A stretch of DNA of 64,000 nt from Nitrososphaerota archaeon (GCA_041641295.1 JBEPYO010000001.1:576001-640000), one strand, 5' to 3'; numbered from the stretch's first letter, positions 9,363 to 61,864 are shown. The notes: generated by a model from the sequence alone, not told the origin. Numbers and translations: made by a program.

Positions 9363-9441
9363 CTCTCACTCCCCGTTAATTTTCATGTAACAATCAAGTT
9401 GATGAGGGTCCTAATTAACCAGAGAGACGGATGATATATCC

Positions 9442-11543: not shown

Positions 11544-11664
11544 ACTGTCTTCACAATTCTCCCGCCATAGCTATTTTTAAGGATGTTGATGAGGTGAAGG
11601 ATCTAATTCTGCGATGGACGAGTAGGGGTGGTGGCTGGAGTAGGGGTCGGTTTAGCATATTTCC

Positions 11665-12765: not shown

Positions 12766-12813
12766 AAAAATCTAAGCTTATGCGGCTTTATAGCTTGTCA
12801 TGGATTATACGTT

Positions 12814-13443: not shown

Positions 13444-13457
13444 TATCTAAAACCACC

Positions 13458-15052: not shown

Positions 15053-15095
15053 AACACCCTTCTAAGGCTGCTGACTCACTGCTGATAAATTAATT

Positions 15096-15735: not shown

Positions 15736-15788
15736 TTCCCACAACTACCTACACATTACTTTATATAACCCTTCCAAGAGCAGATCAA

Positions 15789-16835: not shown

Positions 16836-16908
16836 CAAACCCACCCCATAACGTAGCCGGACTACTCGCCTCCAACACTTATAAACTCACCACAAGTCAT
16901 ACATATTA

Positions 16909-17940
16909 ATGCATCAAACACCCAAAGTAGCTTTAATAGTGCTAAACCACAACTCCGTATCAAAGCTTGGCAGAGAAATGCTCAGATATGTTGAGAGCAT
17001 AGCCAAAACACAATACCGCAACCTAGAGATAATAATTATAGATAACGCCTCCACCGACGGCAGCTACAACATAATCCAAGACTGGGTCAAAAACTATCCC
17101 CACACAAGACTATTGAAACTAGACAGGAACCTAGGCTATGCAGGTGGAAATAACACAGGATTCAGAACAGCCGTAAAAGATGCAAAATATGTCGCATTCC
17201 TTAATAACGACATAGAAGTTGAACAGGACTGGCTAGAAAAAATAATAGAAGTAATGGAGTCCGATAGAAGCATCGCCGCAGCCCAGCCAAAAATACTCCA
17301 ACTAAAAAATAAACAACTCATCGACTCACTTGGAGGATTCGTAGACAGACTCGGCAGAGCATACGACCTCGGCCACGGAATGCCAGACATGGACCAACAT
17401 GAAAAACCCTTTGAAGTATTCTACGCACGCGGGGCAGCGATAGTTGTCCGCGCAGAATTGTTCAGGATGGTCGGCGGGTTTGACGAGGACTACTTCATCT
17501 ACTACGAGGAAACAGATCTCTGCTGGAGGCTAAGACTCCTAGGCTACAAGATAGTTACAGTCCCAACCGCAAGGATATATCACCTTGGGGGTGGTACAAC
17601 AGGCGGAGCAACACCCCACACTATATACCTCAGGAGACGTAACCAACTCGCCACTATACTGAAAAACTACAACTTATTTAACGCCATGAGATTCGGCGCC
17701 ACCGTAATACTACTATATTCGGTATTCGCAATATCTCGCCTTACGATTAGAAGAGATAGCAGGGTAGCCGCCGCAGTACTAAAATCTTTAATCTGGAACA
17801 TAAAAAATCTGAAAAGAGTCTTCGCGAAACGAGCTATAATACAAGCAATACGCCGAGTCCCTGAAAAAGACATCCTAAAACACATGCTCACCGTGCAACA
17901 ATACAATTCAATTGCAAAGCATCTCGTGAAAGAGTACTAG
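16909..17940 (+). CDS. Glycosyltransferase, GT2 family (rhamnosyltransferase-like)
   Basis: DNASTDG, NLGYAGGNN, FLNND, YYEETDLCWR. Confidence 0.9.
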   Translation: MHQTPKVALIVLNHNSVSKLGREMLRYVESIAKTQYRNLEIIIIDNASTDGSYNIIQDWVKNYPHTRLLKLDRNLGYAGGNNTGFRTAVKDAKYVAFLNNDIEVEQDWLEKIIEVMESDRSIAAAQPKILQLKNKQLIDSLGGFVDRLGRAYDLGHGMPDMDQHEKPFEVFYARGAAIVVRAELFRMVGGFDEDYFIYYEETDLCWRLRLLGYKIVTVPTARIYHLGGGTTGGATPHTIYLRRRNQLATILKNYNLFNAMRFGATVILLYSVFAISRLTIRRDSRVAAAVLKSLIWNIKNLKRVFAKRAIIQAIRRVPEKDILKHMLTVQQYNSIAKHLVKEY

Positions 17941-18839
17941 GATTTGAGCAGCTCGTAGAGCATTCCGGCTGTTCTGACGGCCTGTCTTAACACCTCTATC
18001 GCAGGGAGAACAATCTTGTCCACCAATCCAATACTGTCGAGCGTTCCATATCTTAAGAGATAGTGCAGATAAATTAAAAGTTGTAGCGGCGGTACAAGCA
18101 GGGCTGAGGTAAGCACAATATTCTTGAAGGTCCATAGTGGGGACATGTCAGGATGCTTCTCAGCTATATGGACGTAGCTTCTGCCATACCTGAAGTTGAG
18201 CTTCCAAAACCTAGCCCGCTCTAAATGTAACACCTCTACCGGCAGGTATGAGAGCCGATACCCGGCCTTACGGAGTCTAAAACTTATGTCACTATCTTCC
18301 TTAGCCAGTTTGAAGTAGGGGTCAAACCCACCCACCTGTTCCAGTGCATCTCTCCTAAACATAGTGCAAGCTGTATGTAACGCTATGGCAGGATGCGGAT
18401 AACAAGGGTCTGATAAATGGAGATAAATCGCCAGATTCTTCGCTTGAAAACGGGCAAGCCAGCCTTGCTCCTGCACCACCGGTCTGAGTTTCGCAGAAAC
18501 AGCGCCTAATCCTTGATCAGACTCCAACACCTTTATAGCCTCGGTCACAAAAAGTGGTTCTAAAACCACATCGCTGTCCAACATAACAATATATGGACTA
18601 GTGGTCGCTCTCCATCCTTTGTCCCTTGCAAATCCAAGCCCCCGTCTTTCATCGTCAAGGATCTTAATTACGAGCCTCTCGCTGAAACGCTTAATAACCT
18701 CTAATGTCCCATCAGTCGACCCACCATCCACAACGACAACCTCTCCAACAGGCTCCGATACACGGGTGATAGCCTCAATACACCTCTCAATCGTTCTTAC
18801 AGAATTTTTCGTCAAGATCACAAACGAAACACTAGCCAT
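17937..18839 (-). CDS. Glycosyltransferase, GT2 family
   Basis: VDGGSTDGT, MLDSD, EDSD motifs. Confidence 0.85.
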   Translation of the reverse strand: MASVSFVILTKNSVRTIERCIEAITRVSEPVGEVVVVDGGSTDGTLEVIKRFSERLVIKILDDERRGLGFARDKGWRATTSPYIVMLDSDVVLEPLFVTEAIKVLESDQGLGAVSAKLRPVVQEQGWLARFQAKNLAIYLHLSDPCYPHPAIALHTACTMFRRDALEQVGGFDPYFKLAKEDSDISFRLRKAGYRLSYLPVEVLHLERARFWKLNFRYGRSYVHIAEKHPDMSPLWTFKNIVLTSALLVPPLQLLIYLHYLLRYGTLDSIGLVDKIVLPAIEVLRQAVRTAGMLYELLKS

Positions 18840-31540: not shown

Positions 31541-32701
31541 ATGGAAGCTCTGGAGATTGGGATCCGGAGCGGATTTAGCTATCATAATGTCTGGAGGATG
31601 CTGCGTGGTAGTGGAGTAGAAGTATCGAGGTCTACTGTCAGGAGATATTACTACAAGAGATTTCCTGAGAGGTTGGGGAAGAGAGGGCCGTGCCTCGACA
31701 GGTCTATTAGGATTAAGGTTTTCGGCGAGGTCAAAAGGCTGCGGGGATTGGGACATTCGTACAACAAGATCATAAGGGAGATAGAAGAGGTGTACGGAGT
31801 CCGGCTAAGCAAGTCGCAGGTCAGTGAGTGGTTGAGAGGGATACATAACCCATTCAATGGGTGTAGGATACCGTCCATAGACTTCCTAGAGAAGACCCCA
31901 GAACTCGCATACGTTATAGGGGTTGTCTCTGGCGACGGATGGGCTGTTAGAAAAAGAAAAGGCGATGCTAGGATAGGGGGCATGGTCAAAGACAGGGAGT
32001 TCATAGAAGAATTCTCGAGATGCTTGGGACAGGTTCTTAATAGGTATCCGCCGAAGCCTGCACCAATAGGAAACGGGTTCTTCCGAGTAATTGTTCAATC
32101 AAAGGCTCTCTACGACCTGCTTCGGAAGCCTATCGACATAGAGGTGATAAGACCATTCGTGGAGCATTGTGAAGAGTGTATGAAGAGCTTTTTGAGAGGA
32201 TTCTTCGACAGCGAAGGCTCAGTAAGTAGTTATGGCTCTATTACATGCGTCAACACTGACGAAAGACTCATCAACTATGTTAAGATGCTTCTAAATAATC
32301 TAGGCATCAAAACAACTGGGCCACATCTTCAGATGAAGAGAGGAACACCATTCTTCAGCAAGAAGAGGGGCAAGACCTACCGGACAAGAAAGGACGCCTA
32401 TAGCCTCTACATCAGGACATGCAGCAGGCTAAAATTCTACGAGCTAGTAGGCTTCACAATCAAGAAAAGGCAGCAAAGATTAGAAGAATACCTGAGGAGA
32501 CTAGGACGCCTAAACATGCCACCCAGCCAAACCTCCCCCCAAACACTATCCTCAACTCCCATCTCAACCTCCCACTCACAATATAGAATATCCGGAATGG
32601 CCGCGGGTGGGACTCGAACCCACGATCGCCGGGTCCACAGCCCGGAGTGTTACCAGCTACACCACCGCGGCCACCGCTACGAGTTCGCAGATTTCAGGTA
32701 A
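31541..32701 (+). CDS. Free-standing double-motif LAGLIDADG endonuclease with two N-terminal HTH-like repeats (copy 1)
   Basis: LAYVIGVVSGDG and FLRGFFDSEG motifs; no intein or host protein; frame runs on antisense through tRNA-His. Confidence 0.85.
   Translation: MEALEIGIRSGFSYHNVWRMLRGSGVEVSRSTVRRYYYKRFPERLGKRGPCLDRSIRIKVFGEVKRLRGLGHSYNKIIREIEEVYGVRLSKSQVSEWLRGIHNPFNGCRIPSIDFLEKTPELAYVIGVVSGDGWAVRKRKGDARIGGMVKDREFIEEFSRCLGQVLNRYPPKPAPIGNGFFRVIVQSKALYDLLRKPIDIEVIRPFVEHCEECMKSFLRGFFDSEGSVSSYGSITCVNTDERLINYVKMLLNNLGIKTTGPHLQMKRGTPFFSKKRGKTYRTRKDAYSLYIRTCSRLKFYELVGFTIKKRQQRLEEYLRRLGRLNMPPSQTSPQTLSSTPISTSHSQYRISGMAAGGTRTHDRRVHSPECYQLHHRGHRYEFADFR
32599..32672 (-). tRNA. tRNA-His(GTG) with encoded G-1
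   Basis: G-GCCGCGG/CCGCGGC-C acceptor; anticodon arm CCGGG-CTGTGGA-CCCGG. Confidence 0.95.
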
Positions 32702-34683: not shown

Positions 34684-35154
34684 TTATTCTTCACTGCTTC
34701 GCAGCATCTTCTTAATCTCCGAGGCCACCGATATGCATGCCTTCTCCACACTTTCAGAGAGGCCTGAGCCCTGCTCAAATCGCTCACCCTCTATGCCGTA
34801 GACAAGTATCCTAGCTGGGAGCATCCTGAGGGAGTCAGCCAAGCCGATAATCTCCGGCAAAGTCATGGTGTGTGTCGACCTCCACGCAGCCGTCTTTGAT
34901 AGTTTGTCCGTCGAGTCGAGCCTGTGGATGGTTCCTCCACCAGAGAATTTCTCCATGGCATCGACTATGACCAAGAGGTCTATGTCGCCTGTCAGGTGGT
35001 CTAGAAGCTCGGTGAGCGTCTGAAGCCTGATAACCTCTGCACCAGCCTCTCCCGAGAGCAGGTCGGCGACCCTATGCCCAGCCCCATCATCACCCCTAAA
35101 CGTGTTGCCGATACACGCCACCATTACGCGTCTTCTGCGGCTACTCTTCCTCAA
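34684..35154 (-). CDS. Hydrogenase maturation protease
   Basis: [17 protein letters not shown] motifs; last gene of the hydrogenase operon. Confidence 0.9.
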
Positions 35155-36436
35155 TCTCCAGCTTTAGGAAGTGTGTCGCACAGGAGATGCATGGGTCGTA
35201 GTTTCTTACCGCCTGCTCGAACCGCCAGACTGCCTGGCTACGTGGGAGCCTCACTATCTCGGGGGCTAGGGCCCGGAGGTCCTCCTCAATCCTCTTCTGG
35301 TTCTGGGCTGTGGGGGGCACTATCTTGGCTGAGAGTATCCGGCCCTCGCCATCCACGTCGTATCTGTGGTAGAGTATGCCTCTCGGAGCCTCAGTGCATC
35401 CGCAACCTCTCCCAGCTCTGACCTGCGGCTCAACCCTAGGACTCGACGGCTCAACATATTCGTCGATAATCCTGAGAGCCTCCTCAAAGGAGTAGTATGT
35501 CTCAGCAACTCGCGCGATTATGCTCTTGAACGGGTTCCTGCAAGGTGTCTTAAAGCCGATTCTCCTTAAGGCCCCTTTTGTGCGGTCGTGGAGCTTGTCA
35601 TAGTTAAGGTTGATTCTGGAGAGGGGGCCGACCATGTATGAGCCCCTGCCGACTATGTAGGAGTGTAGCGCATTGGAGTGTGGGACCTGCTCCTCCGCAA
35701 AATAGTCCTCGTACTGGTCAACATCAATGTCCAATCCCTTATTCGACACAATCCTTCCCTCGTTCATCGGATACTCTTCTGGGTGTCTGAGGGAGACGAA
35801 CTCGTAGTCCTGCTCAAAAGCAGGGAACTCTAGGTCCGCAACCCACTCCAGCAGGTCTTCAACAGTCGCCATGTTTTCTACTAGTCGCTCCCTCAGCTCC
35901 ATTAGCTCGCGCTTAGAAGGCACGCGGTAGAACCCACCTACGCATGCTGAGACAGGGTGAATCTCCCGGCCACCCAGCAGCGAGACTATATCATTTCCCA
36001 GCTTCTTCACCTTGAGGGCATTCTTCACTACTCTGGGGTGTTTCTTAGCCATCTTAATTGCGTCGTCGTATCCTAGGAAGTCGGGTGCGTGGAGGAGGAA
36101 GGCGTGGAGCATGTGGCTCTCTATCCACTCACCACAGTAGTAAAGCCTCCTCAGACTCCTCACCGACGGGGCTATGGTTACGCCGAAGAGCCTTTCAAAA
36201 GCATGCACCGAGCTCATCTGATAAGCCACAGGGCAAATCCCGCAGATCCTAGCAGTTATATCTGGGGCGTCATAGTACATCCGGCCCACTAGCAGTGCTT
36301 CGAAGAGCCTCGGAGGCTCGAATATCCTGAACTTGACGTCCACCACCTCGCGGCCTCTAAGCTTGATGTAGAGCGCGCCCTCGCCCTCAACCCTGGCTAG
36401 GTAGTCCACACGGTATTCCTTCTCCCTAGCAGTCAA
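35141..36436 (-). CDS. hydA: Group 3b [NiFe]-hydrogenase large (alpha) subunit
   Basis: ARVEGEG, RICGIC (L1), DPCISCATH (L2) with short C-terminal extension. Confidence 0.95.
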
Positions 36437-37203
36437 GCCTCAGCCTCCACCTCCCTAAAGCCAGGCGCCCAAGCGTTGAAGAGTCTGAAGGCCATGACGA
36501 CTTCCTCCCGCCTCCTACCCAGCTCTATGAAACGCTTCATTAGTGACTTAGAGTTAAGCGACTCTTTAGGCCCGTAGCAGCCATAGCATCCCCTCCCATA
36601 GGCTGGGCAGATGGCCCCACAGCCTGCATGAGTCACTGGCCCGAGACATGGAACGCCCCGAGCCACCATTACACATGCCGTGCCCCTCAGCTTACACTCG
36701 ACACAGACGCTCTGGTTGGGAATGCTGGGCGCCCTCCCCGAGAGGTACGCCGAAATCACCTCGAGTAGCTGGTACTTGTTTATTGGGCAGCCCCGGAGTT
36801 CGAAGTCAACCGGCACGTGGTCTGAGATGGGGGTAGACTTGTCCAGCGTCTCGATGTATTCTGGCTTCGGATAGACGTATTTCATAAACTCGGCTGAGCC
36901 CCTCCAGTTCCTGAGGGCCTGTATCCCGCCTGCTGTCGCGCACGCGCCTATGGTTATGAGTACTCTGCAGTTCTTCCTGATCTCTTTGATGAGCTCGGCG
37001 TCGTGGGGGGTTGTGATGCTTCCCTCTACTAGGCCGATGTCATATGGGCCCTTAACTACTGCACGGCTTGCCTCCAAGAAGTACGCGATCTCGAATGTCT
37101 CGCCAATTGTTAGCAACTCCTCCTCCAAGTCGAGGATGCTTAGCTGGCAGCCATCACATGACGCGAATTTATAGACTGCAATCTTTGGCCTTCTCTTCGC
37201 CAT
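36433..37203 (-). CDS. hydD: Group 3b [NiFe]-hydrogenase small (delta) subunit
   Basis: [25 protein letters not shown]; start revised to MAKRR. Confidence 0.9.
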
Positions 37204-38060
37204 CACACCTCCCTCCGCCCGAAGAAGTTTGAGACTTCTGAGAGGCTGAAGACAGGCCCATCCTTGCAGACGAAGAACGGGCCGAACTGGCAGTGCCCAC
37301 ATATACCGACGCCACACTTCATATTCCTCTCCATAGAGATGAAAATCCTCTCATCTGGAAGCCCCTGATTCTTCAACTCCTGCACGGTAAACCTCATCAT
37401 TATCTCAGGGCCGCAGACGTATGCATAGGTGTTGTTTGGCTCGAGCCTCAAGTATCTGAACAGTGTTGTGACTACGCCTATGTATCCGCGCCACTTCTCA
37501 TCCCCTCTATCTACAGTGACGAGTAGCTGGGTGTCCAGCCTGCTCCTCCAGACACGCAGTTCTTTCTTATAGAGCAGGTCGGCTGGCGTGCGGGCCCCAT
37601 AGAGAACATAGAGCTTCCCATACTTCTCCCTGTTTCTTATTATGTGTTGTATTGCCGGTCTTAGGGGTGCTAAACCTATTCCACCCCCAACAATAATTAC
37701 GTCCTGACCCTCAGCCTCTCTGAGCGGCCACCCCCTACCGAAGGGCCCCCTCAACCCCACGCTCGAACCTATCCGCGCCGTCGTCAAGGCCTTGGTCACA
37801 GGCCCCACCGCCCTCACGGTATGCTCCAGTGTCTGCCCGTTGGAGGAGGCTCCGCTTATGGAGATGGGGACCTCGCCCACGCCATAGGCGTAGAGCATGT
37901 TGAACTGGCCGGGGCTGAAAGCTATCTCGCCACGCCTGAGCGGACGAAGCCTAATGGTGTACGTGTCAGGCGTCTCTTTATTCCGTCCAACCAATTGGCA
38001 CCAATCAATCCTGAACGGCTCTAGAGCGGTGGCCGCTCCGAGACTCTGCTCAGTCATCAC
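37203..38060 (-). CDS. hydG: Group 3b hydrogenase gamma subunit (FAD/NAD(P)-binding, 2Fe-2S)
   Basis: [33 protein letters not shown]...CKDGPVF. Confidence 0.9.
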
Positions 38061-38542
38061 ACCGCACCAGTCCTCGGCTCACCGTAGATATCCGCGAGAC
38101 GCAGCCTAGCAGCCCTAAGCCTGTCAGCGACAACCATCACTATGCGCCGGTAGACCTCGTAGCCGAATTCGATGTCGCTCTCCATCATCCGCAACATTTT
38201 CTCACTGTCGATCGAGATCGCCATCGTGTTCTCAACGGCTACCGCGCCGGCGGTCTTCTTGAAGGGCTCTATGAGTGAGGACCAGCCCAGAACCTCCCCG
38301 CTGCCAATGGTCTCGAACCTGAACTCACCCCGCGGCGGAATATTGAAGTAAAGAGCTACAAGGCCATAGACTATCAGGTACAGTTTTTTATGCACTTCTC
38401 CCTCGCTGAATATCCGCTGCCCCGCTGTGAACCGAACAATGCTAGCGATTGATGCGAGCTCCTTGACCTTCTCCGCCCGCATGCCCTTGGTGAAGGGGTG
38501 GTCGCTCAGCAGTGTTAAGAGCTCGACCTGCTGGCTACTCAT
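38057..38542 (-). CDS. Cyclic nucleotide-binding (Crp-type) domain protein without HTH
   Basis: [26 protein letters not shown]; 161 aa. Confidence 0.8.
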
Positions 38543-39675
38543 GTCGCACTCACCTCCAGCACCCTCTGCCTAATCTTCGCCGCCTCCTCCGTAATATCTA
38601 TCCCCACTGGGCACCAAGTGATGCACCTGCCACAGCCCACACAGCCCATGACGCCGAACTGGTCAATCCACGTCGCGAGCTTGTGTGTAAACCACTGACG
38701 ATACCTGCTCATCCTACTAGACCTGATGGGGCCTCCGTGGATATAGGAGAAGTCGGCATTGAAGCATGAGTCCCATCTCCTCCAACGCTCAGCAACATTG
38801 CCCGAAAGAGTTGTAACCTCCTCAACAGTCGTGCAGAAGCATGTGGGGCAGACAAGTGTACAGTTAGCGCATGCGAGACACCTCTCAGCAACCTCTGCGT
38901 AGACCGGGCTCTCGAGGTTTTTGTACAACAAGTCCTTCAGACCGTTCACGTCCAGACCCTTCCTAAACAATGTTCGAGCCCTCTCAATCCTCGCAGCGGC
39001 CTCTGAGACTTCCTCGTCAGTCGCCCTCCGCGCACCGATACGCTCTAGGAGGCTCTTGCCAGCACTCGAACCCGCCTTAGCTACGAAGTAGTGTACACCA
39101 TCGCCCACTACCTCAGTGAGGCCTATATCGTAGCCCGACCCCGCCTCAGGCCCCGTGCCGACGGATAGGCAGAAGCAGTTCTCACCCGGCTCGGTACAGT
39201 TGACCGCAACTATGAAGACCTCGCGCCTCATTGCCGAGTAGACTGGGTCCACGTATGGGCCGCCCAGCAACACCTTGTCTAGGACCGAGATGGCGGCGAG
39301 CTCACACCCCCTAACCCCTATGAAGGCCAGCTTCTTCCCCAACACGTTGTTGGGGGTGACTTCACCTTTTCTCGAAACTGTGAAGAGTTTGACGCGGGGT
39401 GGATATAGAAACCTCTTCCACGAGTGTGGGCCTACTACGAAGCCGAAGAACGCCTTATCACCTCTCTCCTCTAGCCTGTAGTATCCTGGCCCCTGCCTAT
39501 CCCTCAGCCCCACTGGTAGCTGAGAGGCTGACTCAATCTCATCGTACACTATGGCACCCTCCCTGACTACTGGCCCAATAACAGAGTATCCAAGCCCTCG
39601 AAGAGCTGTGATTAGCTCGCCGAGAAGCGGGGGGTCGAGAAGATAATGATCGCTTTGATCTCTAAGTTCCCCCAT
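38539..39675 (-). CDS. hydB: Group 3b hydrogenase beta subunit (4Fe-4S)
   Basis: [32 protein letters not shown]. Confidence 0.9.
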
Positions 39676-39718
39676 CACATGTTTTAGAGTATTGAAAATC
39701 ATATAAATATATCGTGCC

Positions 39719-39750
39719 TTCATGCTGAAGGTCTATGCTTTCATGCTGAA
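39719..39750. promoter_or_regulatory. Tandem palindromic TTCA-N3-TGAA boxes upstream of the hydrogenase operon TATA box
   Basis: TTCATGCTGAA at 39719-39729 and 39740-39750 (21-bp period), beside an AT-rich TATA element at 39701-39712. Confidence 0.5.
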
Positions 39751-39788
39751 TATTATTGAGATATGTAGACAAGCATAAGGGTGTGGAA

Positions 39789-40568
39789 CTAGTCTACACT
39801 TAGGCCCGCATTCCTGAGAACGTGTTTGAGCGCATCAGCGAACCGCGTCGAAAGAAGCTCATCCCTCCCCAGCCTGCCGCTCCGCGAACTCAGCAACGGG
39901 TCAAAAGGAATCTCTCCTAGAAACGCAACGCCTTTAGCACGCGCCAGCTCCTTCGTAGGACTCTCAGGGTCGCTGGTGGACATGTTCTCTACGAGGCCGA
40001 TTATTTTTAGAGACGCCGACCTCAGAATATCTATGAGTCTTCCGGCCACGTTTACTGCCAAGTGCGTCGGCGTGGTAATCACGATTGCTCCGCCACTCCT
40101 CTTAACGTATTTCGAGATCGTGAGAAGTTCGTCCCCAGTCCCCGGAGGCATGTCTACTAACAGGTAGTCGAGCCTGCCGAAGGCTGTTAGGGCCAGCATC
40201 TCCTTCACGATCTCCTCCTTGGCCTGCCCTGTTAGGGGGAGGGGCCTACCCTTCGAGAAAAGGTCGATGGACATAACCTTCAACCCCTCCACCACCGGCG
40301 GGACCAGACCCTCTCCCGACTCGACAGGATTGTCCTCAACACCTAGTAGTAGGCATGAAGAGGGGCCATGCAGGTCGAGGTCGAGCAGCCCTGTCCTATT
40401 GGATGCCCGTGAGAGCATGAGGGCGGCGGTGGCGGCTATTAGGCTCTTCCCCACACCACCCTTCCCGCCCGTGACCAAGATTATTTGAGAGATTTTTCCT
40501 ATGTTCTCCTCGATGAGGGAGTCTCTGTAGTCGAGCCGGCCCCCACTATCCCTCGACGCATACGACAT
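39789..40568 (-). CDS. Mrp/NBP35 family P-loop ATPase
   Basis: GGKGGVGKS, DLDLHGPS, DMPPGTGD, ENM. Confidence 0.9.
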   Translation of the reverse strand: MSYASRDSGGRLDYRDSLIEENIGKISQIILVTGGKGGVGKSLIAATAALMLSRASNRTGLLDLDLHGPSSCLLLGVEDNPVESGEGLVPPVVEGLKVMSIDLFSKGRPLPLTGQAKEEIVKEMLALTAFGRLDYLLVDMPPGTGDELLTISKYVKRSGGAIVITTPTHLAVNVAGRLIDILRSASLKIIGLVENMSTSDPESPTKELARAKGVAFLGEIPFDPLLSSRSGRLGRDELLSTRFADALKHVLRNAGLSVD

Positions 40569-40953
40569 CTCTCACACTCACACCCCGACCCGAGACAATC
40601 CTCAAGTCTAGGCTTCCACACCACTTGCAGGCCGCATATGACGCTATCAGATCTGGGAGAAAATGTATCATCTCCCTCTCCTCCTCGCTGAGACCAGAGA
40701 TGGCCTCGCCGAAAGTCATAGTGTGGCCGCATGAGCCGCAGCTAATCATAGCAGGCTCAATCTCGATGGAGAACTCTGCCCCCTTGACCGCGCTGGCCGC
40801 GATAAGCCTCTCCAAAGCCTCACGAAGCACACTTGTGTCGAGCATACTCAGCTCACCGACCAAGACCCTAAAGCTCCTGACACCACAGCCAGACTTTAAC
40901 GAAAAGTCTCTAACCGACTCGACAACACCCCTCGCGATCGCATACTCATGCAT
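40546..40953 (-). CDS. hypA: Hydrogenase nickel metallochaperone HypA
   Basis: MHE start, CGSC...CKWC, archaeal EMIHFLPD insertion, SGRGV. Confidence 0.95.
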   Translation of the reverse strand: MHEYAIARGVVESVRDFSLKSGCGVRSFRVLVGELSMLDTSVLREALERLIAASAVKGAEFSIEIEPAMISCGSCGHTMTFGEAISGLSEEEREMIHFLPDLIASYAACKWCGSLDLRIVSGRGVSVRDVVCVEG

Positions 40954-41265: not shown

Positions 41266-42426
41266 ATGTCTGGAGAGAGCTGCCCACGCGTAGCGGAGCC
41301 TGTAGCAGGGCAGGGAACAGGAGGACTAAATCCCGGTCTTCTCAACGAGCCCGAGGACCAAACAGGGAAAGGATTAGGAAGAGTCCGGCAGAGAATGACA
41401 CCGGAGGAAAAGAAGAAGCTCATGGATGTGCTGAAGAGGGAGGCTCTGAGAGGGCTAGGATACGTGAGAATATGGCGGATGTTAAGGAAGGATGGGGTAA
41501 ATGTATCGAGGCGGACCGTAGAATACTGGTATCGCAAGTTTTTTCCAGAGAGATTGGGGAGAAGGGGAAAATACCTTCCACGCGAATTGAGGATAACGCT
41601 GTACGAGGAAGTCCTGAGGCTGAGGAGGCAGGGATTAGGTTACAAGAAGATTAGGCGGAGGATTAAAGAATTATATGATATCACGCTTGCACCCGCGGTA
41701 ATTGTTGATTGGTGTAGAGGAATCCATACACCATATGGCGGAATACGAATTCCTACAGTAGACTACCTGAAGCCATCCCCAGAGCTAGCTTATGTCATAG
41801 GTGTTGTGTGCGGGGATGGATCAGCTGTTAAAACAAGGGGGAGAAGCGGTGAATATGTTATCGGATCTCAAGTTAAGGATCGAGAGTTTAGCGAGAGATT
41901 CGCAGAATGCCTCGGTCGAATACTGAATAGGAGCCCGCCAACGCCGATACTCGTTAGAGGTAAGTTTCAGGTTTGTGTAAGATCGAGAACTCTTTACCAA
42001 CTTCTCCGAAAACCAATCGACATAAACAGGATAAAGAATTTCACGGAGCATTGTGAAGACTGCATGAGAAGTTTCCTAAAAGGCTTCTTCGATAGCGAAG
42101 GATCAGTAAGTAAGGAGGGGGAAATTCGCTGTGACAACTCAGACAAACAACTCCTAAACTATGTCAAGACCCTCCTGAATCGTTTATGCATCGATGTAAC
42201 AGGGCCGCACTTAGGTGTAAAGAAAGATACGCCCATCTTTAATAAGGATATGCAGAGAATATACATGAGAAAGAAAGAAGTATATTATCTCAATATCAGG
42301 GCTCCATATAGGCTAAAGTATTACGAGCTTGTTGGATTCTCTATTCGAAAGAAACAACAACGAATGGAAAACTATTTCAGGAGAAGAGGACTACTGGGGG
42401 GTCGCCTACCAGACCACCCCCTATAG
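41266..42426 (+). CDS. Free-standing double-motif LAGLIDADG endonuclease with two N-terminal HTH-like repeats (copy 2)
   Basis: LAYVIGVVCGDG and FLKGFFDSEG; colinear paralog of 31541-32701; stops 43 bp from the tRNA-Arg 3' end. Confidence 0.85.
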   Translation: MSGESCPRVAEPVAGQGTGGLNPGLLNEPEDQTGKGLGRVRQRMTPEEKKKLMDVLKREALRGLGYVRIWRMLRKDGVNVSRRTVEYWYRKFFPERLGRRGKYLPRELRITLYEEVLRLRRQGLGYKKIRRRIKELYDITLAPAVIVDWCRGIHTPYGGIRIPTVDYLKPSPELAYVIGVVCGDGSAVKTRGRSGEYVIGSQVKDREFSERFAECLGRILNRSPPTPILVRGKFQVCVRSRTLYQLLRKPIDINRIKNFTEHCEDCMRSFLKGFFDSEGSVSKEGEIRCDNSDKQLLNYVKTLLNRLCIDVTGPHLGVKKDTPIFNKDMQRIYMRKKEVYYLNIRAPYRLKYYELVGFSIRKKQQRMENYFRRRGLLGGRLPDHPL

Positions 42427-42469
42427 TCTCTTTTCACCCCAATCTTGCTGGTGTCTCATTATATAAATG

Positions 42470-42561
42470 CGGGCCCGGTGGGACTCGAACCCACGGTTTC
42501 CGCGCCTTTAACGCTCTGCGGCTTAGGAGGCCGCCGCCTTATCCTTCTAGGCCACGGGCCC
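42470..42561 (-). tRNA. tRNA-Arg(CCT) with 18-nt non-canonical intron at 45/46 (42498-42515)
   Basis: Anticodon arm GCGGC-CTCCTAA-GCCGC; BHB CCGC-AG^A-GC...GC-GCGG-AA^A-C; splicing restores variable loop AGACC. Confidence 0.9.
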
Positions 42562-50674: not shown

Positions 50675-51280
50675 TTGAGGATGCCTAAAAAAGGCAGGAA
50701 TGGAGCGAGCCCCAGAGGAGGGCGCCACAAGCTATCATATCTTGTAGCCCTCATCCCCGCGGCTGTCTTCGTGGGTCTTATCGTGTTCCTATTATCACAG
50801 CCCGCCGCTCAGCCGCCCATCACACAGGTATCCCCTACAGCCGAGAGAAAGGAGGCACCGGACTTCGTATTGAGAAAGCTCACCCCCAACGGCCTGAGCG
50901 ATGAGACATTCACCCTTTCATCTGCCAGGGGTAGGGTGGTCTTCCTAGACTTCGCATGGTGGCGGTGCCCACATTGTAACAACATGGAGCCGGTGATTAA
51001 GGACCTCTACTCGGAGTTCAGCGGTCGAGGAGTCGTCTTCGTTACCGTGCTACTCGATGACATGCAGAGCAGTGTCTCGGATAGTGCCCGCTTCGTCGCC
51101 CAGCATGAAATTCCTTGGACGGCTCTCTGGGACGAGGGAGGGAGAGTTTTCAGCCGGTATGGAATAAGGGAGACCCCCACTTATGTCATAATAAACAGGG
51201 AGGGTAAGATTGTCACGGTCGTGAAGGGTGAGCAGCAAAGGCAGGTTCTCGCCGACATTTTGAGATCGGTTCTAGGGTGA
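50675..51280 (+). CDS. Membrane-anchored TlpA/ResA-like thioredoxin
   Basis: TM anchor, APDF, WRCPHC, ETP. Confidence 0.85.
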   Translation: MRMPKKGRNGASPRGGRHKLSYLVALIPAAVFVGLIVFLLSQPAAQPPITQVSPTAERKEAPDFVLRKLTPNGLSDETFTLSSARGRVVFLDFAWWRCPHCNNMEPVIKDLYSEFSGRGVVFVTVLLDDMQSSVSDSARFVAQHEIPWTALWDEGGRVFSRYGIRETPTYVIINREGKIVTVVKGEQQRQVLADILRSVLG

Positions 51281-51732
51281 TAGGTGGCTTGGGCCACTGG
51301 TCGCCTCCACGCATGGCGTACCTATCCTCAGCCATCCTCTCAGCCGCAGGTCTCCCCCTCTCGATCTATCTAGTCTCACCGGGCGAGCTCCCCCAGTTCT
51401 GCGAGGTTGGGAGCAGATTCTCCTGCGTGACGGTAATCCACAGCGAGTACTCCAGATTCATGGGCATACCTGTTGCAGCTGTTGGGGCTTTATGGTTTGG
51501 AGGGGCCCTAGCCCTGTCCTTGGCAGCGGTGGCTGGGCTCAGGGTTGGGAACATCCTCCTATACTGGTCGGTCCTAGGCGTTCTCGGCGCTCTGGCCCTA
51601 CTCTTCGTCGAGATATTCATGATAGGGAGTATATGCCTGCTCTGCACCTTTGCGCACGCAGCAGGGGCAGGGATCTTTGCAGCAGCCTACCTAGCACATA
51701 TCTGGACTCAGCCGCCCATAACCTCTGGGTAG
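51277..51732 (+). CDS. VKOR family disulfide-bond formation protein
   Basis: C..C.TVIHSEYSRFMGIPVA and CLLC motifs. Confidence 0.9.
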   Translation: MIGGLGHWSPPRMAYLSSAILSAAGLPLSIYLVSPGELPQFCEVGSRFSCVTVIHSEYSRFMGIPVAAVGALWFGGALALSLAAVAGLRVGNILLYWSVLGVLGALALLFVEIFMIGSICLLCTFAHAAGAGIFAAAYLAHIWTQPPITSG

Positions 51733-55906: not shown

Positions 55907-56317
55907 CCGGCTAGTAAAGGTGCGCGCAGGGACAAAAACATCTCTCACCACCATTAGAGGGGTATCTCGGCTAACCTCCTGCCTCGTAGAACGCCTGGCC
56001 AGTCGGGCAAACCCCCATCTAAGAGGCTTGCACTATCCAAAACCAGAAAAACCAGCACATACATTTAAACAAATAGACATCACGGCGAAAATAGTGTAAC
56101 AAAATAAACCTATCACATGGGATTCCAGGCATTTACTAAGAACGGAGAGATAGAGCGTGATAATAGCACCGTCAGCGAGTTTTTGTCATGGGGTCAGAAA
56201 CATGACCACTGGTTCTCTAAGAAGCATGATTGGTCTCCTTTGCTCAGGATTGAGGCTACGCTTGGCAAGAACTATCTTATATTAAGGTGCATCCCAGACT
56301 TAGCCATAATACAACAC

Positions 56318-56950
56318 CTACAACCATCCTAGAAGGGCCTCCACTAGTGAACTAACGTTACTGCTGTTGCTGATGAGGATGGAGGGATGTGAATGATCTC
56401 CTTCGCGCTCCATCTTAAAGCCTACCTGAGGCGGGTCGAAGTAAGCGGGGTTTCTTACGACCCCTGTCTCTGTAGTAATCTTATCCAATCCAGCCATTTC
56501 CAAGGCCACGAAGAACTTGGAGGTAGCCCCACCTATCATAACTAGCTTCGCACCGCTTAAAGCAGCATTTCTAAGGAAGACAAGTAGCCTAGGATCACTC
56601 AAACTCTTCTCGAACCACTCGCCTCCGAATACGACCAACGTGTTAGCGCTCAGCGCCACATCTCCCGGAATATCTGCTAAAGATGTTATACGAGCCCCTC
56701 TAAATTCAAGCTCTTTAACAACTTCAGACGCCAACTTACCACCGCCTATATGAAGAACCATAAAATTACTTAAATCGCGCTGCACGCTCCATCCTCCCGG
56801 TGTTTGAATACTCCGTGACCACATTGTTGATAGTAGAAAACTTGAAGATAATATAATGATTAATGCTGATAGTACAATCAACCCCAACATAATCATGCTT
56901 TTTCTTTCTTTGATCGATAAAAGTTTCCTATCTACATGGATTATCATCAC
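56318..56950 (-). CDS. Hypothetical exported/membrane-anchored protein
   Basis: N-terminal hydrophobic helix; lies in the AT-rich islet. Confidence 0.6.
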   Translation of the reverse strand: MMIIHVDRKLLSIKERKSMIMLGLIVLSALIIILSSSFLLSTMWSRSIQTPGGWSVQRDLSNFMVLHIGGGKLASEVVKELEFRGARITSLADIPGDVALSANTLVVFGGEWFEKSLSDPRLLVFLRNAALSGAKLVMIGGATSKFFVALEMAGLDKITTETGVVRNPAYFDPPQVGFKMEREGDHSHPSILISNSSNVSSLVEALLGWL

Positions 56951-57326
56951 TAAGCTTGTATTGTCAACTTCTACTTAAGCTTAGTTCATATTCTCATTTA
57001 AGGTGGTTGTATCCGCGACAGGCCTGTTACCGAATGGGCTCTCTCATATGCGCTTACATTCTGGAGAGGATTATCAAGACGGCACCAATCTCTATCAGGC
57101 CTAATAAATTGACAAGTGTCCCGACACAGCCCACTTTCACGGTACTGAAGACTGCCTCATTTAAGATGTTGTCGCTAAAATGCTAACTATACAAAATATG
57201 AAGACTCTTAAAAAGGACTGTGATAGACTCCATCAGACCTTAAATGACCTCCCTTATATTTGGACACCACATACCAAAAAATAAAAGAAAGGTAAGTAAT
57301 GCTTAGTATATGGAGGGTAGCGGTAT

Positions 57327-58337
57327 TTGAAAAACGTCACCCTCATTTTTGACGATAAATGTGCTATATGTCGGAGACTTGCCACTGATGTGAAAAAATA
57401 TTCTTATGGGTTAATAAGGGCATTACCGCTTGACAGCGGCGAATCGAAAGAGTTGCTCCATAAACTATATGGTGAACACCCTCCCAACAGCTTCTTTCTA
57501 ATTCAGCAAGATGGAAGCTATATACAGGTGAGTTATGGTATCAGGGCAGCTTTTAAAATAGCTAGTCTGGTGGGTCTCAAGAATGCTGTGAGGCTTTTTG
57601 CATCTTATCTCGACTATCACAGGGTGCTCAGGAGGTCGTTGAGGTCAAACATATGCTGTAATAATGGAACTATAGCGATTAATGTGGCTAAACGTCGAAC
57701 ATTAAACTTCCTAATTAGGGGCGGGGTCTTATTAGCATTTTACGCATTGCTAGGGTCTTGGCTTATTCCCAAGACTCTCGGAGAACAGCGGGAAAGACCT
57801 ATAAGAATAATTGAGACAAGACGAGTAGCTGGTGAAGAAAAAAGGAATATCTTAGGGGGTGTCATCTCTGATAATGACTTCCTAAATGCAATGCACTGGC
57901 TAATCAGAAATTCCTTCACGCCTCAGATCAATGACGCTAGCGTGGAGCATATTTTTGCCCAGGCTGGTGAGACACAGCTGGTCTTTCTCAAAGTACAAAT
58001 ACCATTCAGAGGTGAGGGGGACCCCCAACTGCTCTTCATAAGAGGCATAGAGGGTCCGCTGAAGGATGAAAAAGTGGCTCTAGCGTCTTATATTTCTCCA
58101 GATGGCCACCAACACGGATTCGCGAGTAAAGATGGAATAACCAGAGAGGTTACCTATGGGAGCCATGATCCTCTAGGCTGCGGAATCTGCTTAGCCAGAT
58201 GCGTGGTGCTCACTTGCTGGACATGTTGGATCGCATGCGCATATGCGTCTACGGGTGTAGGTGTTGCGCTTTGCCTCGTATGCACCCTAGTATCTTGTCC
58301 ATTCTGTTTTACGGGGTGTTACTCGTACTGTCGGTAG
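57327..58337 (+). CDS. DCC1-like thiol-disulfide domain fused to twin-Arg signal, pro-region and 12-Cys peptide (halocin C8-like precursor)
   Basis: LIFDDKCAIC at the N-terminus; KRRTLNFL plus hydrophobic stretch near aa 122-148; 12 Cys in the last ~52 aa. Confidence 0.65.
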   Translation: MKNVTLIFDDKCAICRRLATDVKKYSYGLIRALPLDSGESKELLHKLYGEHPPNSFFLIQQDGSYIQVSYGIRAAFKIASLVGLKNAVRLFASYLDYHRVLRRSLRSNICCNNGTIAINVAKRRTLNFLIRGGVLLAFYALLGSWLIPKTLGEQRERPIRIIETRRVAGEEKRNILGGVISDNDFLNAMHWLIRNSFTPQINDASVEHIFAQAGETQLVFLKVQIPFRGEGDPQLLFIRGIEGPLKDEKVALASYISPDGHQHGFASKDGITREVTYGSHDPLGCGICLARCVVLTCWTCWIACAYASTGVGVALCLVCTLVSCPFCFTGCYSYCR

Positions 58338-58358
58338 GTTGTCAAACCCTTTTGATAG

Positions 58359-58730
58359 GTGTTAGCGACCATGTCTATGGATTATGATTGGAAGAGAGCT
58401 AGGAGAATTGCAGTATATCACATAATGTTGGGATTGATGTTTTTAATACCTACTTTACTTGGTCCATTTGCTCTGCTCTTAAACTTAGACGTATATTGGC
58501 CTCGTGGTTGGTATTGGTTATATGTAGCTCCGCCGATATACGGGTCTATGGCAGTCCACAACTTCCTTATAGCTTATGGTCTACGGAGGAAGAGGCCTTG
58601 GGCGTGGCGTGAGACGGCTCTCAAGGACCCAAGATGGTACGCCTCAAGACGCTCAATACTCTCGGCAATAGCAATAACAATCATAATAGTTGTGTCAATT
58701 ATAATATTATTTTTTTCATATGCGGGGTGA
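58359..58730 (+). CDS. Three-TM membrane protein (candidate immunity protein)
   Basis: Three hydrophobic segments with a basic loop; directly downstream of and co-oriented with the Cys-rich precursor. Confidence 0.55.
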   Translation: MLATMSMDYDWKRARRIAVYHIMLGLMFLIPTLLGPFALLLNLDVYWPRGWYWLYVAPPIYGSMAVHNFLIAYGLRRKRPWAWRETALKDPRWYASRRSILSAIAITIIIVVSIIILFFSYAG

Positions 58731-59111
58731 TGCTCTCACGTTCCAGCCCCTCACAACCTTGTAGACATACTTGATGACCTTATCGTCGAAGGGCCTCCAC
58801 TATTGTGGATGTGGATGACGCCATAGAACACTCTCTCATCTCTTCAGCAGTATATGAAATATGTATCATCCACCCACCTCAGTCTCCTTGGCCTCTAATA
58901 CTCCAGTGCAAACATCGCCCTCGTCGTCCCTCAGCTCAAACTCCTTCAGCTTGGCAATTCTCTCGGATAGCGGCTCATCAAACCTGACATAAGTCCGCCA
59001 GGGCCTATACCCTTTAGACGAATATTCCAACCACTCACGGTTGCTCGAATTGGGAGTAGTGGATATAAACGGTTGAGGCCCGACAGAACAGAACACCCCA
59101 GATCTAAACAA
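58730..59111 (-). pseudogene. Degraded gene remnant
   Basis: Coding-like fragments in shifting frames (WRTYVRFDEPLSERIAKL..., DERVFYGVIHIH, FDDKVIKYVYKVVRGW) separated by stops. Confidence 0.35.
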
Positions 59112-59388
59112 CCAAAATCACTAATGAAGGGAATAATAAGAGAGTGAACAGGAGAATTAGGACAAGAAGGAAAAATAGGGGAAGTTGGCCGGGCGGCACT
59201 CCACCAGAGAACCCGGAAGATCCAGGCAGCAGTGCTACGACCTAAGCTTGTTGGGGGTTAAAATCCTTATATCTGATGGAAGAGTATTGGTATAGTCCAC
59301 TTTGAGGACAGGGTTATAGAGATTCCCACACAAGCTAAGAAGTTAACAGTTAAATCCCTGGTTGTGTTGATATGATTTAAGATGCCTC

Positions 59389-59955
59389 ATGAGTGAAGAA
59401 TGGTGGCGTAGGAGGAGGTTCTTCCGGCCCTTCGAGTTCATCGATGAGATGATGAGGGAGTTTGAGCGCTGGTTTGAGGAGGAGTTTAGAAGGTTTGAGA
59501 GGGAGTGGCCCAAGGAGCTGGTGAGGGAGGTTAGGACCCCGACTGGGGTGCGGAGGGAGATAGGCCCGATAGTCTATGGATACTCAATAACGATAGGCCC
59601 TGATGGGCGACCAGTCGTCAGGGAGTTCGGGAACGTCAGGCCGAGCAGGCGCGGAGAACTCCCAGCCCTCACCGTGGAGAGGGAGCCGCTAGTCGACATG
59701 ATAGTCGAGGATGAGCAGATAAAAGTGGTAGCCGAGGTCCCAGGCGTCAGGAAGGAGGACATTAACCTGACTGTGCGCGACTCCAGACTCATCATCAAGG
59801 TTGACACAGAGACTAGGAAATATTACAAGGAGCTGGACCTGCCTGAGGAGGTTGAGCCCGAGAAGGCTAAGGCCACTTATAACAACGGAGTCCTCGAGGT
59901 GGTTTTGCCCAAGAAGGGAGGCGGTCACCCGCCGAAGACCATAAAGGTCGAGTAG
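59389..59955 (+). CDS. hsp20: Archaeal small heat shock protein
   Basis: GPIVYGYSITIGPDGRP..REFGN, EVPGV.KEDI, ATYNNGVLEV. Confidence 0.95.
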   Translation: MSEEWWRRRRFFRPFEFIDEMMREFERWFEEEFRRFEREWPKELVREVRTPTGVRREIGPIVYGYSITIGPDGRPVVREFGNVRPSRRGELPALTVEREPLVDMIVEDEQIKVVAEVPGVRKEDINLTVRDSRLIIKVDTETRKYYKELDLPEEVEPEKAKATYNNGVLEVVLPKKGGGHPPKTIKVE

Positions 59956-60844: not shown

Positions 60845-61864
60845 GTGATGGAGCCAGAAGCCGCTGACAGCCTATACGACATAGTTATAATCGGGTCCGG
60901 ACCCGCCGGATACACCGCTGGTATATACGCCGCTAGAGCAAACCTCAAGACGGTTATAATAGCGGGAGTCACGCCGGGTGGACAGCTCATGTTAACAGGC
61001 GTAGTCGAGAATTTTCCCGGATTCCCTGACGGAGTCCAAGGGCCTGACTTGATGGAGAGCATGAGGAGGCAGGCAGAGAACGCCGGAGTGGAGATCGTAT
61101 ATGACGACGCGGTGGACGTGGATTTCAGCACCTATCCAAGGAAGATAATAACCTCTGATCGGACCTTCCTCGCCAAGGCCGTGATAATTGCGACTGGAGC
61201 GTCGCCGAAGTGGCTCGGGCTTGAGTCTGAGAAGCGCTTGCTAGGGCGCGGCGTATCCAGTTGTGCAACATGTGACGGCCCGTTATTCAGGGGGGCGAAG
61301 TGTGCCGTCGTTGTTGGCGGCGGCGACTCTGCCATGGAGTATGCCCTCTTCCTATCCAAGCTAGTTGAGAAGGTGGTGGTTGTCCACAGGAGGGATAAGC
61401 TCCGGGCCTCGAAGATTATGCAGGAGAGGGCCCTCTCAAACCCGAAAATAGAGTTTGTGTGGAATAGCGTTGTAGTGGATGTGTTGGGGAGTGAGAGGGT
61501 TGAGGGGGTCAAGGTCAAGAACAAGCTGACGGGTGAGGAGAAGGTTATACCTTGCAACGCAGTGTTCGTCGCAATAGGCCACGCGCCTAATACTGAGTTT
61601 CTGCGGGGTAAGTTGGAACTAGACGAGGAGGGATACATTAAACTGTATAATAACTTCGAGACGAGTGTTAAGGGTGTTTTCGCGGCTGGCGATGTCCACG
61701 ATAAGAGGTATAGGCAGGCGATAACGGCTGCTGGTTTTGGATGCATGGCTGCGATGGAGGCGATAAGATTCATAGAGGAGGGACATCCAGAGAGGCTTGA
61801 GAAGGAGTATCGTGCTGGACGGGTAGAAGTGGTCTCCGGCTCTAACCCCTCAGAGCAATCTTAG
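60845..61864 (+). CDS. trxB: Thioredoxin reductase
   Basis: GSGPAG, CATCDG, GGGDSA, FAAGDV, RQAITAAG. Confidence 0.95.
   Translation: MMEPEAADSLYDIVIIGSGPAGYTAGIYAARANLKTVIIAGVTPGGQLMLTGVVENFPGFPDGVQGPDLMESMRRQAENAGVEIVYDDAVDVDFSTYPRKIITSDRTFLAKAVIIATGASPKWLGLESEKRLLGRGVSSCATCDGPLFRGAKCAVVVGGGDSAMEYALFLSKLVEKVVVVHRRDKLRASKIMQERALSNPKIEFVWNSVVVDVLGSERVEGVKVKNKLTGEEKVIPCNAVFVAIGHAPNTEFLRGKLELDEEGYIKLYNNFETSVKGVFAAGDVHDKRYRQAITAAGFGCMAAMEAIRFIEEGHPERLEKEYRAGRVEVVSGSNPSEQS

Follow-up and report, generated by a model that had tools for sequence, protein, structure and literature searches.

A putative precursor gene with a cysteine-rich end

The DNA analysed here is a stretch of 64,000 nucleotides from a Nitrososphaerota archaeon (GCA_041641295.1, JBEPYO010000001.1:576001-640000), which we call the window. 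Between positions 57327 and 58730 it holds two genes on the same strand. The first encodes P0001, a protein that ends in a hydrophobic tail rich in cysteine, and the second a small membrane protein, P0002. A sequence-only reading of this DNA had proposed that P0001 is the precursor of an archaeocin, an antimicrobial peptide stabilised by disulfides whose folding catalyst is fused to it ahead of an export signal, and that P0002 confers immunity. We followed up this proposal with profile searches, structure prediction and a comparison of loci in relatives.

The open reading frame (ORF) of P0001 starts with a TTG initiation codon, with GGAGG 10 nucleotides (nt) 5' of the start, and that of P0002 begins 21 nt past the P0001 stop codon. 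Direct reading of the translation finds in this single ORF all four modules that had been listed for it, each where it had been placed (Table 1). A spurious ORF is ruled out by the relatives and the confident folds described below, and a mis-joining of two genes by the presence of the same fusion in every full-length relative. An in-frame GTG (V120, 57684-57686) stands two codons ahead of K122-R123-R124 and could be an alternative start, giving a second product that begins at the signal-like segment.

Table 1. Features of the P0001/P0002 locus, in window coordinates (aa, amino acids; pLDDT, predicted local distance difference test; GC, guanine-plus-cytosine fraction)
Feature	Position	Strand	Description
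Precursor gene P0001	57327..58337	+	336 aa; ORF and translation, 31 relatives, AlphaFold2 mean pLDDT 77
DCC1-like thioredoxin-fold domain (predicted)	57327..57641	+	residues 1-105; C12-x-x-C15 at 57360-57371
Vicinal C110-C111	57654..57659	+	linker ahead of the signal-like segment; invariant in the 7 closest relatives
Internal twin-arginine signal-like/signal-anchor segment	57690..57770	+	K122-R123-R124 and hydrophobic residues 126-148
Putative carrier/pro-domain	57789..58166	+	residues 155-280; strand, two helices, six-stranded curved sheet
Hydrophobic 12-Cys tail, candidate toxin peptide	58167..58334	+	residues 281-336; six Cys each side of STGVG
Downstream small membrane protein P0002	58359..58730	+	123 aa; possible ATG at 58371
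Low-GC island	55950..59350	.	GC 0.37-0.50 in 300-nt windows, versus ~0.55-0.60 on either flank
210-aa protein	56318-56950	-	one N-terminal hydrophobic segment; without Pfam or NCBIfam family

The N-terminal domain reads F8-D-D-K-C12-A-I-C15 in translation, that is, FDxxCxxC. The Pfam profile PF04134 aligns with P0001 at E = 8.5e-4 and 21 bits (gathering cut-off 27.8), over residues 6-100 and positions 1-95 of the 113 in the profile, and it finds a match in 24 of the 31 relatives, at 15.8-27.4 bits. C15 is invariant and C12 is present in at least 90% of 31 sequences, and in 13 actinobacterial relatives D15, C18 and C21 are invariant. AlphaFold2, run on the 31-sequence alignment, models residues 1-100 of P0001 with pLDDT values of 89-97. 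When the domain model was compared with the PDB using Foldseek there was no match at E <= 0.001; the best were thioredoxins and protein disulfide isomerase domains (E 0.013-0.1, probability at most 0.99, about 90 columns). The earlier assignment of a DCC1/DUF393-like domain is therefore sustained by motif, thioredoxin-like fold and recurrent matches, but neither P0001 nor any of the 24 matching relatives reaches the PF04134 cut-off. Comparison of sequences and models supports a divergent branch of the DCC-type thioredoxin fold rather than a certified member of PF04134.

P0001 resembles the DCC/DUF393 proteins (PF04134; YuxK, plant DCC1) in having a thioredoxin-like fold of some 100 residues that opens with DxxCxxC; it differs from them in that its domain is sub-threshold and is fused to a signal-like segment and a putatively exported cargo. 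A fusion partner described for DCC1-like domains is the HTTM domain (bioRxiv 10.64898/2026.08.19.745780). Behind the domain comes the vicinal cysteine pair, at whose place haloarchaeal members of the family have CxC, as judged by eye.

The next module begins with K122-R123-R124-TLNFL. Hydropathy (Kyte-Doolittle, 19-residue window) peaks at 129-147, and AlphaFold2 models residues 120-142 as a helix. The consensus of signals for twin-arginine translocation (Tat) is S/T-R-R-x-F-L-K, followed by a moderately hydrophobic stretch. Twin arginines are present in 28 of the 31 members and the pattern R[RK]xF[LIMV] in 18 of them, for instance as DRRRFLGL, ARRNFLRT, ERREFLRT or PRRRFLKV, and several members have AxA-like sites after the segment (by eye). 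Among profiles, TIGR01409 matched 7 of 28 relatives, always sub-threshold (<16.7 bits), and the Pfam model TAT_signal gave a weak match in 2 of 31. What stands of the proposed Tat-like signal is that an RR segment recurs throughout the family after the domain; on the other hand, the motif of P0001 itself is non-canonical and the support from hidden Markov models is sub-threshold. Sequence comparison supports the KRR segment as the family's putative counterpart of a twin-arginine signal, placed after the N-terminal domain. The basic flank of a membrane helix stays in the cytoplasm (positive-inside rule), and since basic residues precede this helix, the N-terminal domain is expected to be cytoplasmic.

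Between the signal-like segment and the tail lies a soluble region of about 130 aa, with a domain that AlphaFold2 models (alignment A7) with a mean pLDDT of 94.1 and a predicted template modelling score of 0.85; in the full-length model, residues 160-280, like residues 1-100, have pLDDT values mostly above 85. It belongs to no Pfam family. Against the PDB there was no significant match, the best being CRABP-type barrels (E 0.26, template modelling score ~0.35), and the Atlas returned just generic curved-sheet models with scores of 0.45-0.55. The domain is common to eight relatives (P0003, P0004, P0008, P0009, P0013, P0020, P0022 and P0029), and we infer that it is a carrier or pro-domain for the hydrophobic tail. 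One of the eight, P0022, keeps both the carrier domain and the tail type (phmmer E = 1.6e-5 over residues 158-330). In place of the N-terminal module it has, by eye, a Sec-type signal and then two CxxCH motifs 12 residues apart, like a segment of a di-haem cytochrome c; a Pfam scan of P0022 found no family.

The tail has cysteines at 285, 288, 292, 297, 300 and 304 and, beyond S-T-G-V-G, at 316, 319, 324, 327, 331 and 335, so that the spacing first read, C-x2-C-x3-C-x4-C-x2-C-x3-C-x11-C-x2-C-x4-C-x2-C-x3-C-x3-C, is exact. It is the sole stretch in the six frames of the window with at least 9 cysteines in 55 residues (12, with runners-up at 8), against a background of 1.33% cysteine (248 of 18669 residues) in stop-to-stop ORFs of at least 200 aa. 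Its hydropathy peaks at 287-305 and 310-328. The spacings of its two halves (3,4,5,3,4 and 3,5,3,4,4) around a short turn recall the plant alpha-hairpinins and the mitochondrial twin CX3C/CX9C proteins. Such disulfide-stapled hairpins consist of two antiparallel helices with facing cysteines 3-4 residues apart and are held by two disulfides, whereas the tail of P0001 would need six, and we claim no homology.

Cysteine counts after the RR motif are even in 27 of the 31 members, and in 22 of 26 non-redundant ones (binomial p = 2.7e-4, ignoring relatedness); for the smaller set, five near-identical haloarchaeal proteins (P0034-P0038) were dropped and P0018 was kept for the clade. The count is a multiple of four in 14 of the 26. 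Counts that are mostly even, and multiples of four in no more than these 14, favour cysteines paired as disulfides over four-cysteine metal sites.

Relatives of the precursor and their cargoes

When 1.84 billion representative proteins were searched exhaustively with phmmer (E <= 1e-3), 31 relatives of P0001 were found, the best at E = 1.8e-30 (32 matches counting the query), and their distribution is sparse and sporadic. Seen by eye, they share one plan: a DxxCxxC domain, about 100 residues further on an RR motif with a hydrophobic stretch, an optional middle domain, and a C-terminus packed with cysteine. Through a profile search, at least five haloarchaeal proteins built in this way, each about 470 aa long, joined the set, including those of Halosimplex salinum and Halorubellus litoreus, and NCBI names one of them 'thiol-disulfide oxidoreductase DCC family protein'. 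A word-indexed protein search with P0001 found the query itself as the single match, there was no match below E = 0.7 among PDB sequences, and a tblastn search of plasmids with the haloarchaeal member P0034 found none.

The nearest relative in the genome collection, the one locus found there with the narrow alignment A4, lies in a metagenome-assembled genome of a Nitrososphaerota archaeon (JAVYLC010000012.1, 5977-6366). It encodes 129 aa and breaks off behind the CC motif; neither the protein nor the DNA downstream has a signal or a cargo that could be recognised. A short ORF 100 nt downstream (6441-6656), with a hydrophobic stretch and three cysteines, might be a remnant.

To compare the two ends of these proteins, we took 24 non-redundant full-length members and scored each pair as similar at E <= 1e-3. 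The N-terminal 105 aa were similar in 235 of 276 pairs, and the last 60 aa in 10 of 276; because the set had been gathered via N-terminal similarity, the tail figure alone is informative. Conserved N-termini joined to hypervariable tails, as had been predicted for homologs of P0001, are thus what the family displays.

One relative gives the family a link to bacteriocins. P0028 matches NF033852, 'bacteriocin fulvocin C-related', over the full length of the model (residues 186-327, E = 9.8e-31, 107.6 bits, cut-off 35). It is the one match to this model among the 28 relatives scanned, and P0001 has none. The 16 relatives of P0028 (232-332 aa) align over 64-99% of its length, with coverage of at least 84% in 15 of them and 64% in the 232-aa P0053, and the shared region therefore includes the N-terminal domain. 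Five of the 16 bear the NCBI name fulvocin C-related, and tblastn found ten Streptomyces plasmid copies with at least 80% of the query covered. In an hhalign comparison of profiles, the seven closest relatives of P0001, leaving out P0028, align with 13 actinobacterial proteins in 121 columns that begin at the CxxC and end at the RR motif (probability 97.6%, E = 4.1e-12). By sequence, P0001 and annotated bacteriocin precursors have homologous delivery modules but different cargoes.

The fulvocin C-related proteins (NF033852; Streptomyces, Actinokineospora) have the same order of domain, signal-like segment, pro-region and cysteine-rich end, and an even number of cysteines, but their helical pro-region and polar end with 8 cysteines are unrelated to the carrier domain and hydrophobic 12-cysteine tail of P0001. 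In fulvocin C itself the 8 cysteines are reported to form disulfides. The NCBI name describes the cargo, that is, the C-terminal part, only, and in two of four Streptomyces loci the annotated coding sequence starts after the thioredoxin-like domain.

A second informative locus is that of Thermomicrobium roseum (megaplasmid NC_011961.1), which encodes a family member (hhalign to alignment A2: 97.7%, E = 1.7e-12) with a tail that resembles that of P0001. Genes for an S8 peptidase, a major facilitator superfamily (MFS) transporter and a response regulator precede the precursor, and the gene of a 103-aa membrane protein begins 10 nt past its end. Behind these come three unannotated fragments that encode a cysteine-rich tail without the N-terminal module; their identity to the full tail is 38-43%, and two end in ...CNCCW(N/Q)DPPWGP. 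Each fragment precedes an annotated small membrane protein, and a fifth such protein lies at 7762-8034, at the end of an array that extends over 5380-8034. Orphan cassettes of toxin tip and immunity gene are an arrangement known from polymorphic toxin loci. On plasmid 3 of Rubrobacter radiotolerans an S8 peptidase gene again lies upstream of the family member, and an unannotated ORF of 109 aa with hydrophobic stretches (by eye) lies 23 nt downstream. A small membrane protein is thus found directly downstream in both other non-fulvocin loci viewed.

The downstream gene and the surroundings of the pair

P0002 had been described as a three-helix membrane protein encoded directly after the precursor. 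The gene is there, 21 nt downstream, but a crude hydropathy scan gives strong segments at 17-35 and 100-118 and a weaker central one, that is, two to three transmembrane helices rather than a firm three. P0002 and the small membrane proteins of the relatives are without mutual sequence similarity, and dissimilarity of this kind is usual among immunity proteins.

Complex prediction for the tail (residues 276-336) with P0002 scored 0.37, and the best of three controls 0.00; at least 66% of contacts are common to the runs, with a partner pLDDT of at least 61. Of 78 solved complexes, 51 reach the mark set for such predictions, as do 2 of 108 mismatched pairs; with a score of 0.60 or less, it is reached by just 5 of the 78 and by all 4 passing mismatches (of 180). 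We weigh the score lightly because both chains are hydrophobic and the controls perhaps are not, and such chains may score regardless. The predicted complex lends weak support to an interaction.

The low-GC island holds the P0001/P0002 pair and, divergently oriented, a gene for a membrane-anchored protein of 210 aa, which might be part of the toxin-candidate module. A direct repeat of 24 nt (56326-56349 and 58782-58805, 88% identical) flanks the 210-aa gene, the precursor gene and the membrane-protein gene. It is not the relic of a second copy of the 210-aa gene, as tblastn detected no such copy; it is probably due to chance, or may be an insertion scar. Between P0002 and a gene for an Hsp20 small heat-shock protein (59389-59955), some 650 nt (58731-59388) have no notable ORF on either strand, and their GC content is still lowered.

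Several genes with redox functions are found on both sides of the island. A thioredoxin-like/redoxin protein (50675-51280) and a VKOR-family membrane protein (51277-51732), 5.6 kb upstream of P0001, are likely an extracytoplasmic disulfide-forming pair. Just past the island, near the Hsp20 gene, lies a gene for a thioredoxin reductase-type flavoprotein (60845-61864).

Elsewhere in the window, a probable surface-glycan island occupies a larger second low-GC region (6000-18000, GC 0.44-0.48), full of glycosyltransferases, sugar epimerases/dehydratases and FkbM-type methyltransferases. Two ORFs of 386 aa with LAGLIDADG_3 domains (31541-32701 and 41266-42426) each have an end near or overlapping a tRNA gene on the opposite strand (tRNA-His, 32598-32672, and tRNA-Arg, 42469-42561). 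A [NiFe]-hydrogenase cluster (34684-40953) holds genes for the maturation protease, the large and small subunits and a 4Fe-4S protein, together with a cNMP-binding protein, a ParA/NUBPL-type ATPase and HypA. There are six tRNA matches, two of them 92-97 nt long, as in intron-bearing archaeal tRNAs, and genes of archaeal type include those for TFS/RPB9, an exosome Rrp4-like protein and an ERCC4 nuclease.

A candidate toxin and immunity pair, and its rivals

The reading we favour, with a probability of about 0.55, is that P0001 and P0002 make up a toxin/immunity module that resembles bacteriocins (an archaeocin) and belongs to a polymorphic family present in archaea and bacteria. On synthesis, the thioredoxin-fold DCC-like domain of the precursor (C12xxC15, plus C110-C111) would lie in the cytoplasm. 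The twin-arginine signal-like helix would take the remaining chain across the membrane, probably via Tat, with the N-terminal domain staying inside. The beta-rich domain of about 125 residues would act as carrier or pro-domain for the very hydrophobic tail, whose cysteines would pair into six disulfides. A protease would then free the tail, which would attack the membrane or envelope of competitors, and P0002 would protect the producer. Tat carries folded proteins (PMC2689190). As for the N-terminal domain, we suggest tentatively that it could be a folding catalyst or proofreader of the cysteine-rich cargo, one that oxidises, checks or holds it before export. To our knowledge, thiol-disulfide exchange activity is poorly documented even in the canonical DCC family.

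The architecture, the hypervariability of the tails, the even cysteine counts, the link to a bacteriocin family, the downstream membrane protein in relatives, the tail cassettes of T. roseum, the low-GC island and the sparse distribution speak for the archaeocin interpretation, but a sequence relation to halocin C8 and the hairpin model find no support. The model TIGR04449 (halocin_C8_dom) had no match at E <= 1 in P0001 or in 28 relatives, in a scan of NCBIfam release 20, which we assume holds the model, so the likeness is one of logic and not of sequence. The 283-aa ProC8 of Natrinema (HalI and HalC8) is a single, twin-arginine-exported precursor from which a hydrophobic, cysteine-rich C-terminal peptide is cut, and the preceding part of the chain serves the producer. 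In P0001 the signal is internal (from residue 122), following a thioredoxin-like domain of about 120 residues, rather than N-terminal; its candidate immunity protein is a separate small membrane protein, and its tail has 12 cysteines in 52 residues.

A number of observations weigh against the favoured reading. AlphaFold2 gives the tail three short helices with pLDDT values of 33-45, hence no confident model of the helical hairpin with nested disulfides that had been pictured. Neither Pfam nor NCBIfam has a hit in the tail, which matches no characterised bacteriocin significantly. With the T. roseum tail it aligns by BLASTP (35% over 40 aa), but the E of 2e-5 comes from a comparison of just two, cysteine-biased sequences; it aligns more loosely with the tails of P0021 and P0022, and its best values in the all-against-all test were E = 0.063 and 0.12. 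The RRTLNFL of P0001 departs from the Tat consensus and is less canonical than the motifs of most relatives, and there is no TatC or TatA family among the 64 ORFs of at least 70 aa in the window, the part of the genome covered. P0002 has no Pfam or NCBIfam family, no informative Atlas match and no detectable relatives; it shows 10-27% identity with the T. roseum membrane proteins in forced alignment, and its candidacy as immunity protein is argued from position and size. The 64-kb window has no adjacent protease or transporter and no orphan cassettes, the four Streptomyces loci have no conserved downstream partner, and genomic context was covered for P0005 alone among the 31 phmmer relatives. 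The VKOR and thioredoxin-like pair in the window could oxidise exported cysteines without the N-terminal domain. Finally, the CxxCH motifs of P0022 hint at a redox rather than a toxin role.

This last point leads to the rival that survives best, although we consider it unlikely: P0001 would be a resident membrane redox protein, whose CxxC domain, transmembrane helix, outer domain and cysteine-lined two-helix hairpin form a trans-membrane thiol/disulfide or electron relay. Its role might lie in envelope oxidative folding or stress, by analogy with DsbD/CcdA-type or VKOR-type systems. Both halves of the tail are hydrophobic enough for transmembrane helices, the CxxC motif is invariant and a second cysteine pair stands beside the membrane, and redox genes (VKOR and thioredoxin-like, thioredoxin reductase) lie nearby. 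In P0022 the DCC-like domain is swapped for a Sec-type signal and two CxxCH motifs while the carrier and tail type are kept, which can be read in two ways: either carrier and tail always travel with a redox partner on the folding side, as would suit an oxidase acting in cis, or the whole protein is a redox device. A relay should nonetheless conserve the geometry of its cysteines, and the tails are similar in just 10 of 276 pairs; many are short and polar and come straight after AxA-like sites (P0010, P0012, P0025 and P0027). One branch of the family has a named bacteriocin family as cargo, and the orphan pairs of tail and membrane protein in T. roseum have no place in a relay. The location in a low-GC island and the sporadic family fit it poorly as well.

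Rather less probable is a secreted or surface cysteine-rich protein with no toxic function, such as a signal peptide, an adhesin or an envelope component, with P0002 as receptor, anchor or export helper. The same architecture and the downstream membrane protein fit such a role equally, toxicity being read from sequence patterns. However, a conserved delivery module that ends in hypervariable C-termini and is accompanied by orphan cassettes is what marks conflict systems, as is well established for polymorphic toxins, and the delivery module here is homologous to that of the fulvocin C-related precursors.

We regard as improbable an exported metal-binding or Fe-S protein, whose metal or clusters would be loaded in the cytoplasm and bound by the cysteines of the tail, with the CxxC domain as a metallochaperone. 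Tat substrates often bear cofactors, and cofactor loading in the cytoplasm is the usual reason for Tat export; the twin-arginine type of signal would suit such a protein, and CxxC and CC motifs are able to bind metal. Against it, neither P0001 nor its relatives match a ferredoxin-type or other metal-site family, the cysteine spacing is not conserved across members, the counts are even but multiples of four in just 14 of 26, and the fulvocin-type cargo has 8 cysteines, which in fulvocin C are reported as disulfides. Least probable of all is a precursor of a ribosomally synthesised and post-translationally modified peptide, its N-terminal part a long leader for unlinked tailoring enzymes and its cysteines in thioether or other cross-links rather than disulfides: the conserved, leader-like N-terminus, the hypervariable cysteine-rich core and the weak, sub-threshold matches that three short members give to TIGR04117 ('Cys-Xaa-Xaa-Xaa repeat radical SAM target'), with E 0.019-0.053 and 13.6-15 bits at a cut-off of 50, would suit it, but no radical S-adenosylmethionine (SAM), lanthipeptide or other tailoring gene adjoins P0001 in the window or is found so placed in the Streptomyces, Rubrobacter and T. 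roseum loci, and the 'leader' is a folded, 100-residue thioredoxin-like domain with an invariant CxxC, plus a membrane-targeting segment.

If P0001 and P0002 are a toxin/immunity module, polymorphic toxin systems such as contact-dependent inhibition and Rhs are close in logic: they have a conserved N-terminal part for delivery, a swappable toxic C-terminal part and an immunity gene immediately downstream, a plan that P0001 and P0002 would share, and the array of 5'-truncated tips in T. roseum, each with a candidate immunity gene of its own, fits the likeness. The differences are that the cargo here would be a peptide of about 50-80 residues made mostly of cysteine rather than an enzyme domain, that delivery is apparently by the twin-arginine route instead of a secretion needle or filament, that the candidate immunity proteins are small membrane proteins, and that the window of P0001 is without orphan cassettes. 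The components are all of known kinds (DCC-type fold, twin-arginine signal, cysteine-rich bacteriocins, polymorphic toxin logic), and one cargo is already labelled by NCBI. We found no paper that connects DCC/DUF393 domains with Tat signals or bacteriocins, and none on a thioredoxin-like domain ahead of a signal, on cargo interchange between archaea and bacteria or on orphan cassettes, in a search that did not cover a 2019 survey of archaeal polymorphic toxins. A wider and more doubtful idea is that these proteins are a new class of polymorphic disulfide-rich peptide toxins in archaea (Nitrososphaerota-like, haloarchaea) and bacteria (Actinomycetota, Thermomicrobiota), with the N-terminal domain as an oxidase or proofreader acting in cis before Tat export, tips exchanged between lineages, and membrane antidotes.

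Few antimicrobial proteins of archaea are known, and most come from haloarchaea and Sulfolobales. If the toxin reading is true, an antimicrobial family would reach thermophilic or Nitrososphaerota-type archaea, haloarchaea and several bacterial phyla, and further members could be sought with a simple rule: a CxxC domain, an RR segment, a cysteine-rich end and a small membrane protein. The NCBI label 'bacteriocin fulvocin C-related protein' would then cover one cargo of a wider delivery module, some of whose annotated genes omit the N-terminal domain. The peptides, 50-80 residues long, with 8-20 cysteines and of thermophilic origin, would make exceptionally stable scaffolds. How disulfide-rich proteins are readied for an export route that takes folded substrates only is a long-standing question, for which a signal with a thioredoxin-like domain attached to it would serve as a natural experiment; if the domain acts as proposed, it would be the built-in counterpart of the separate proofreading chaperones of Tat.

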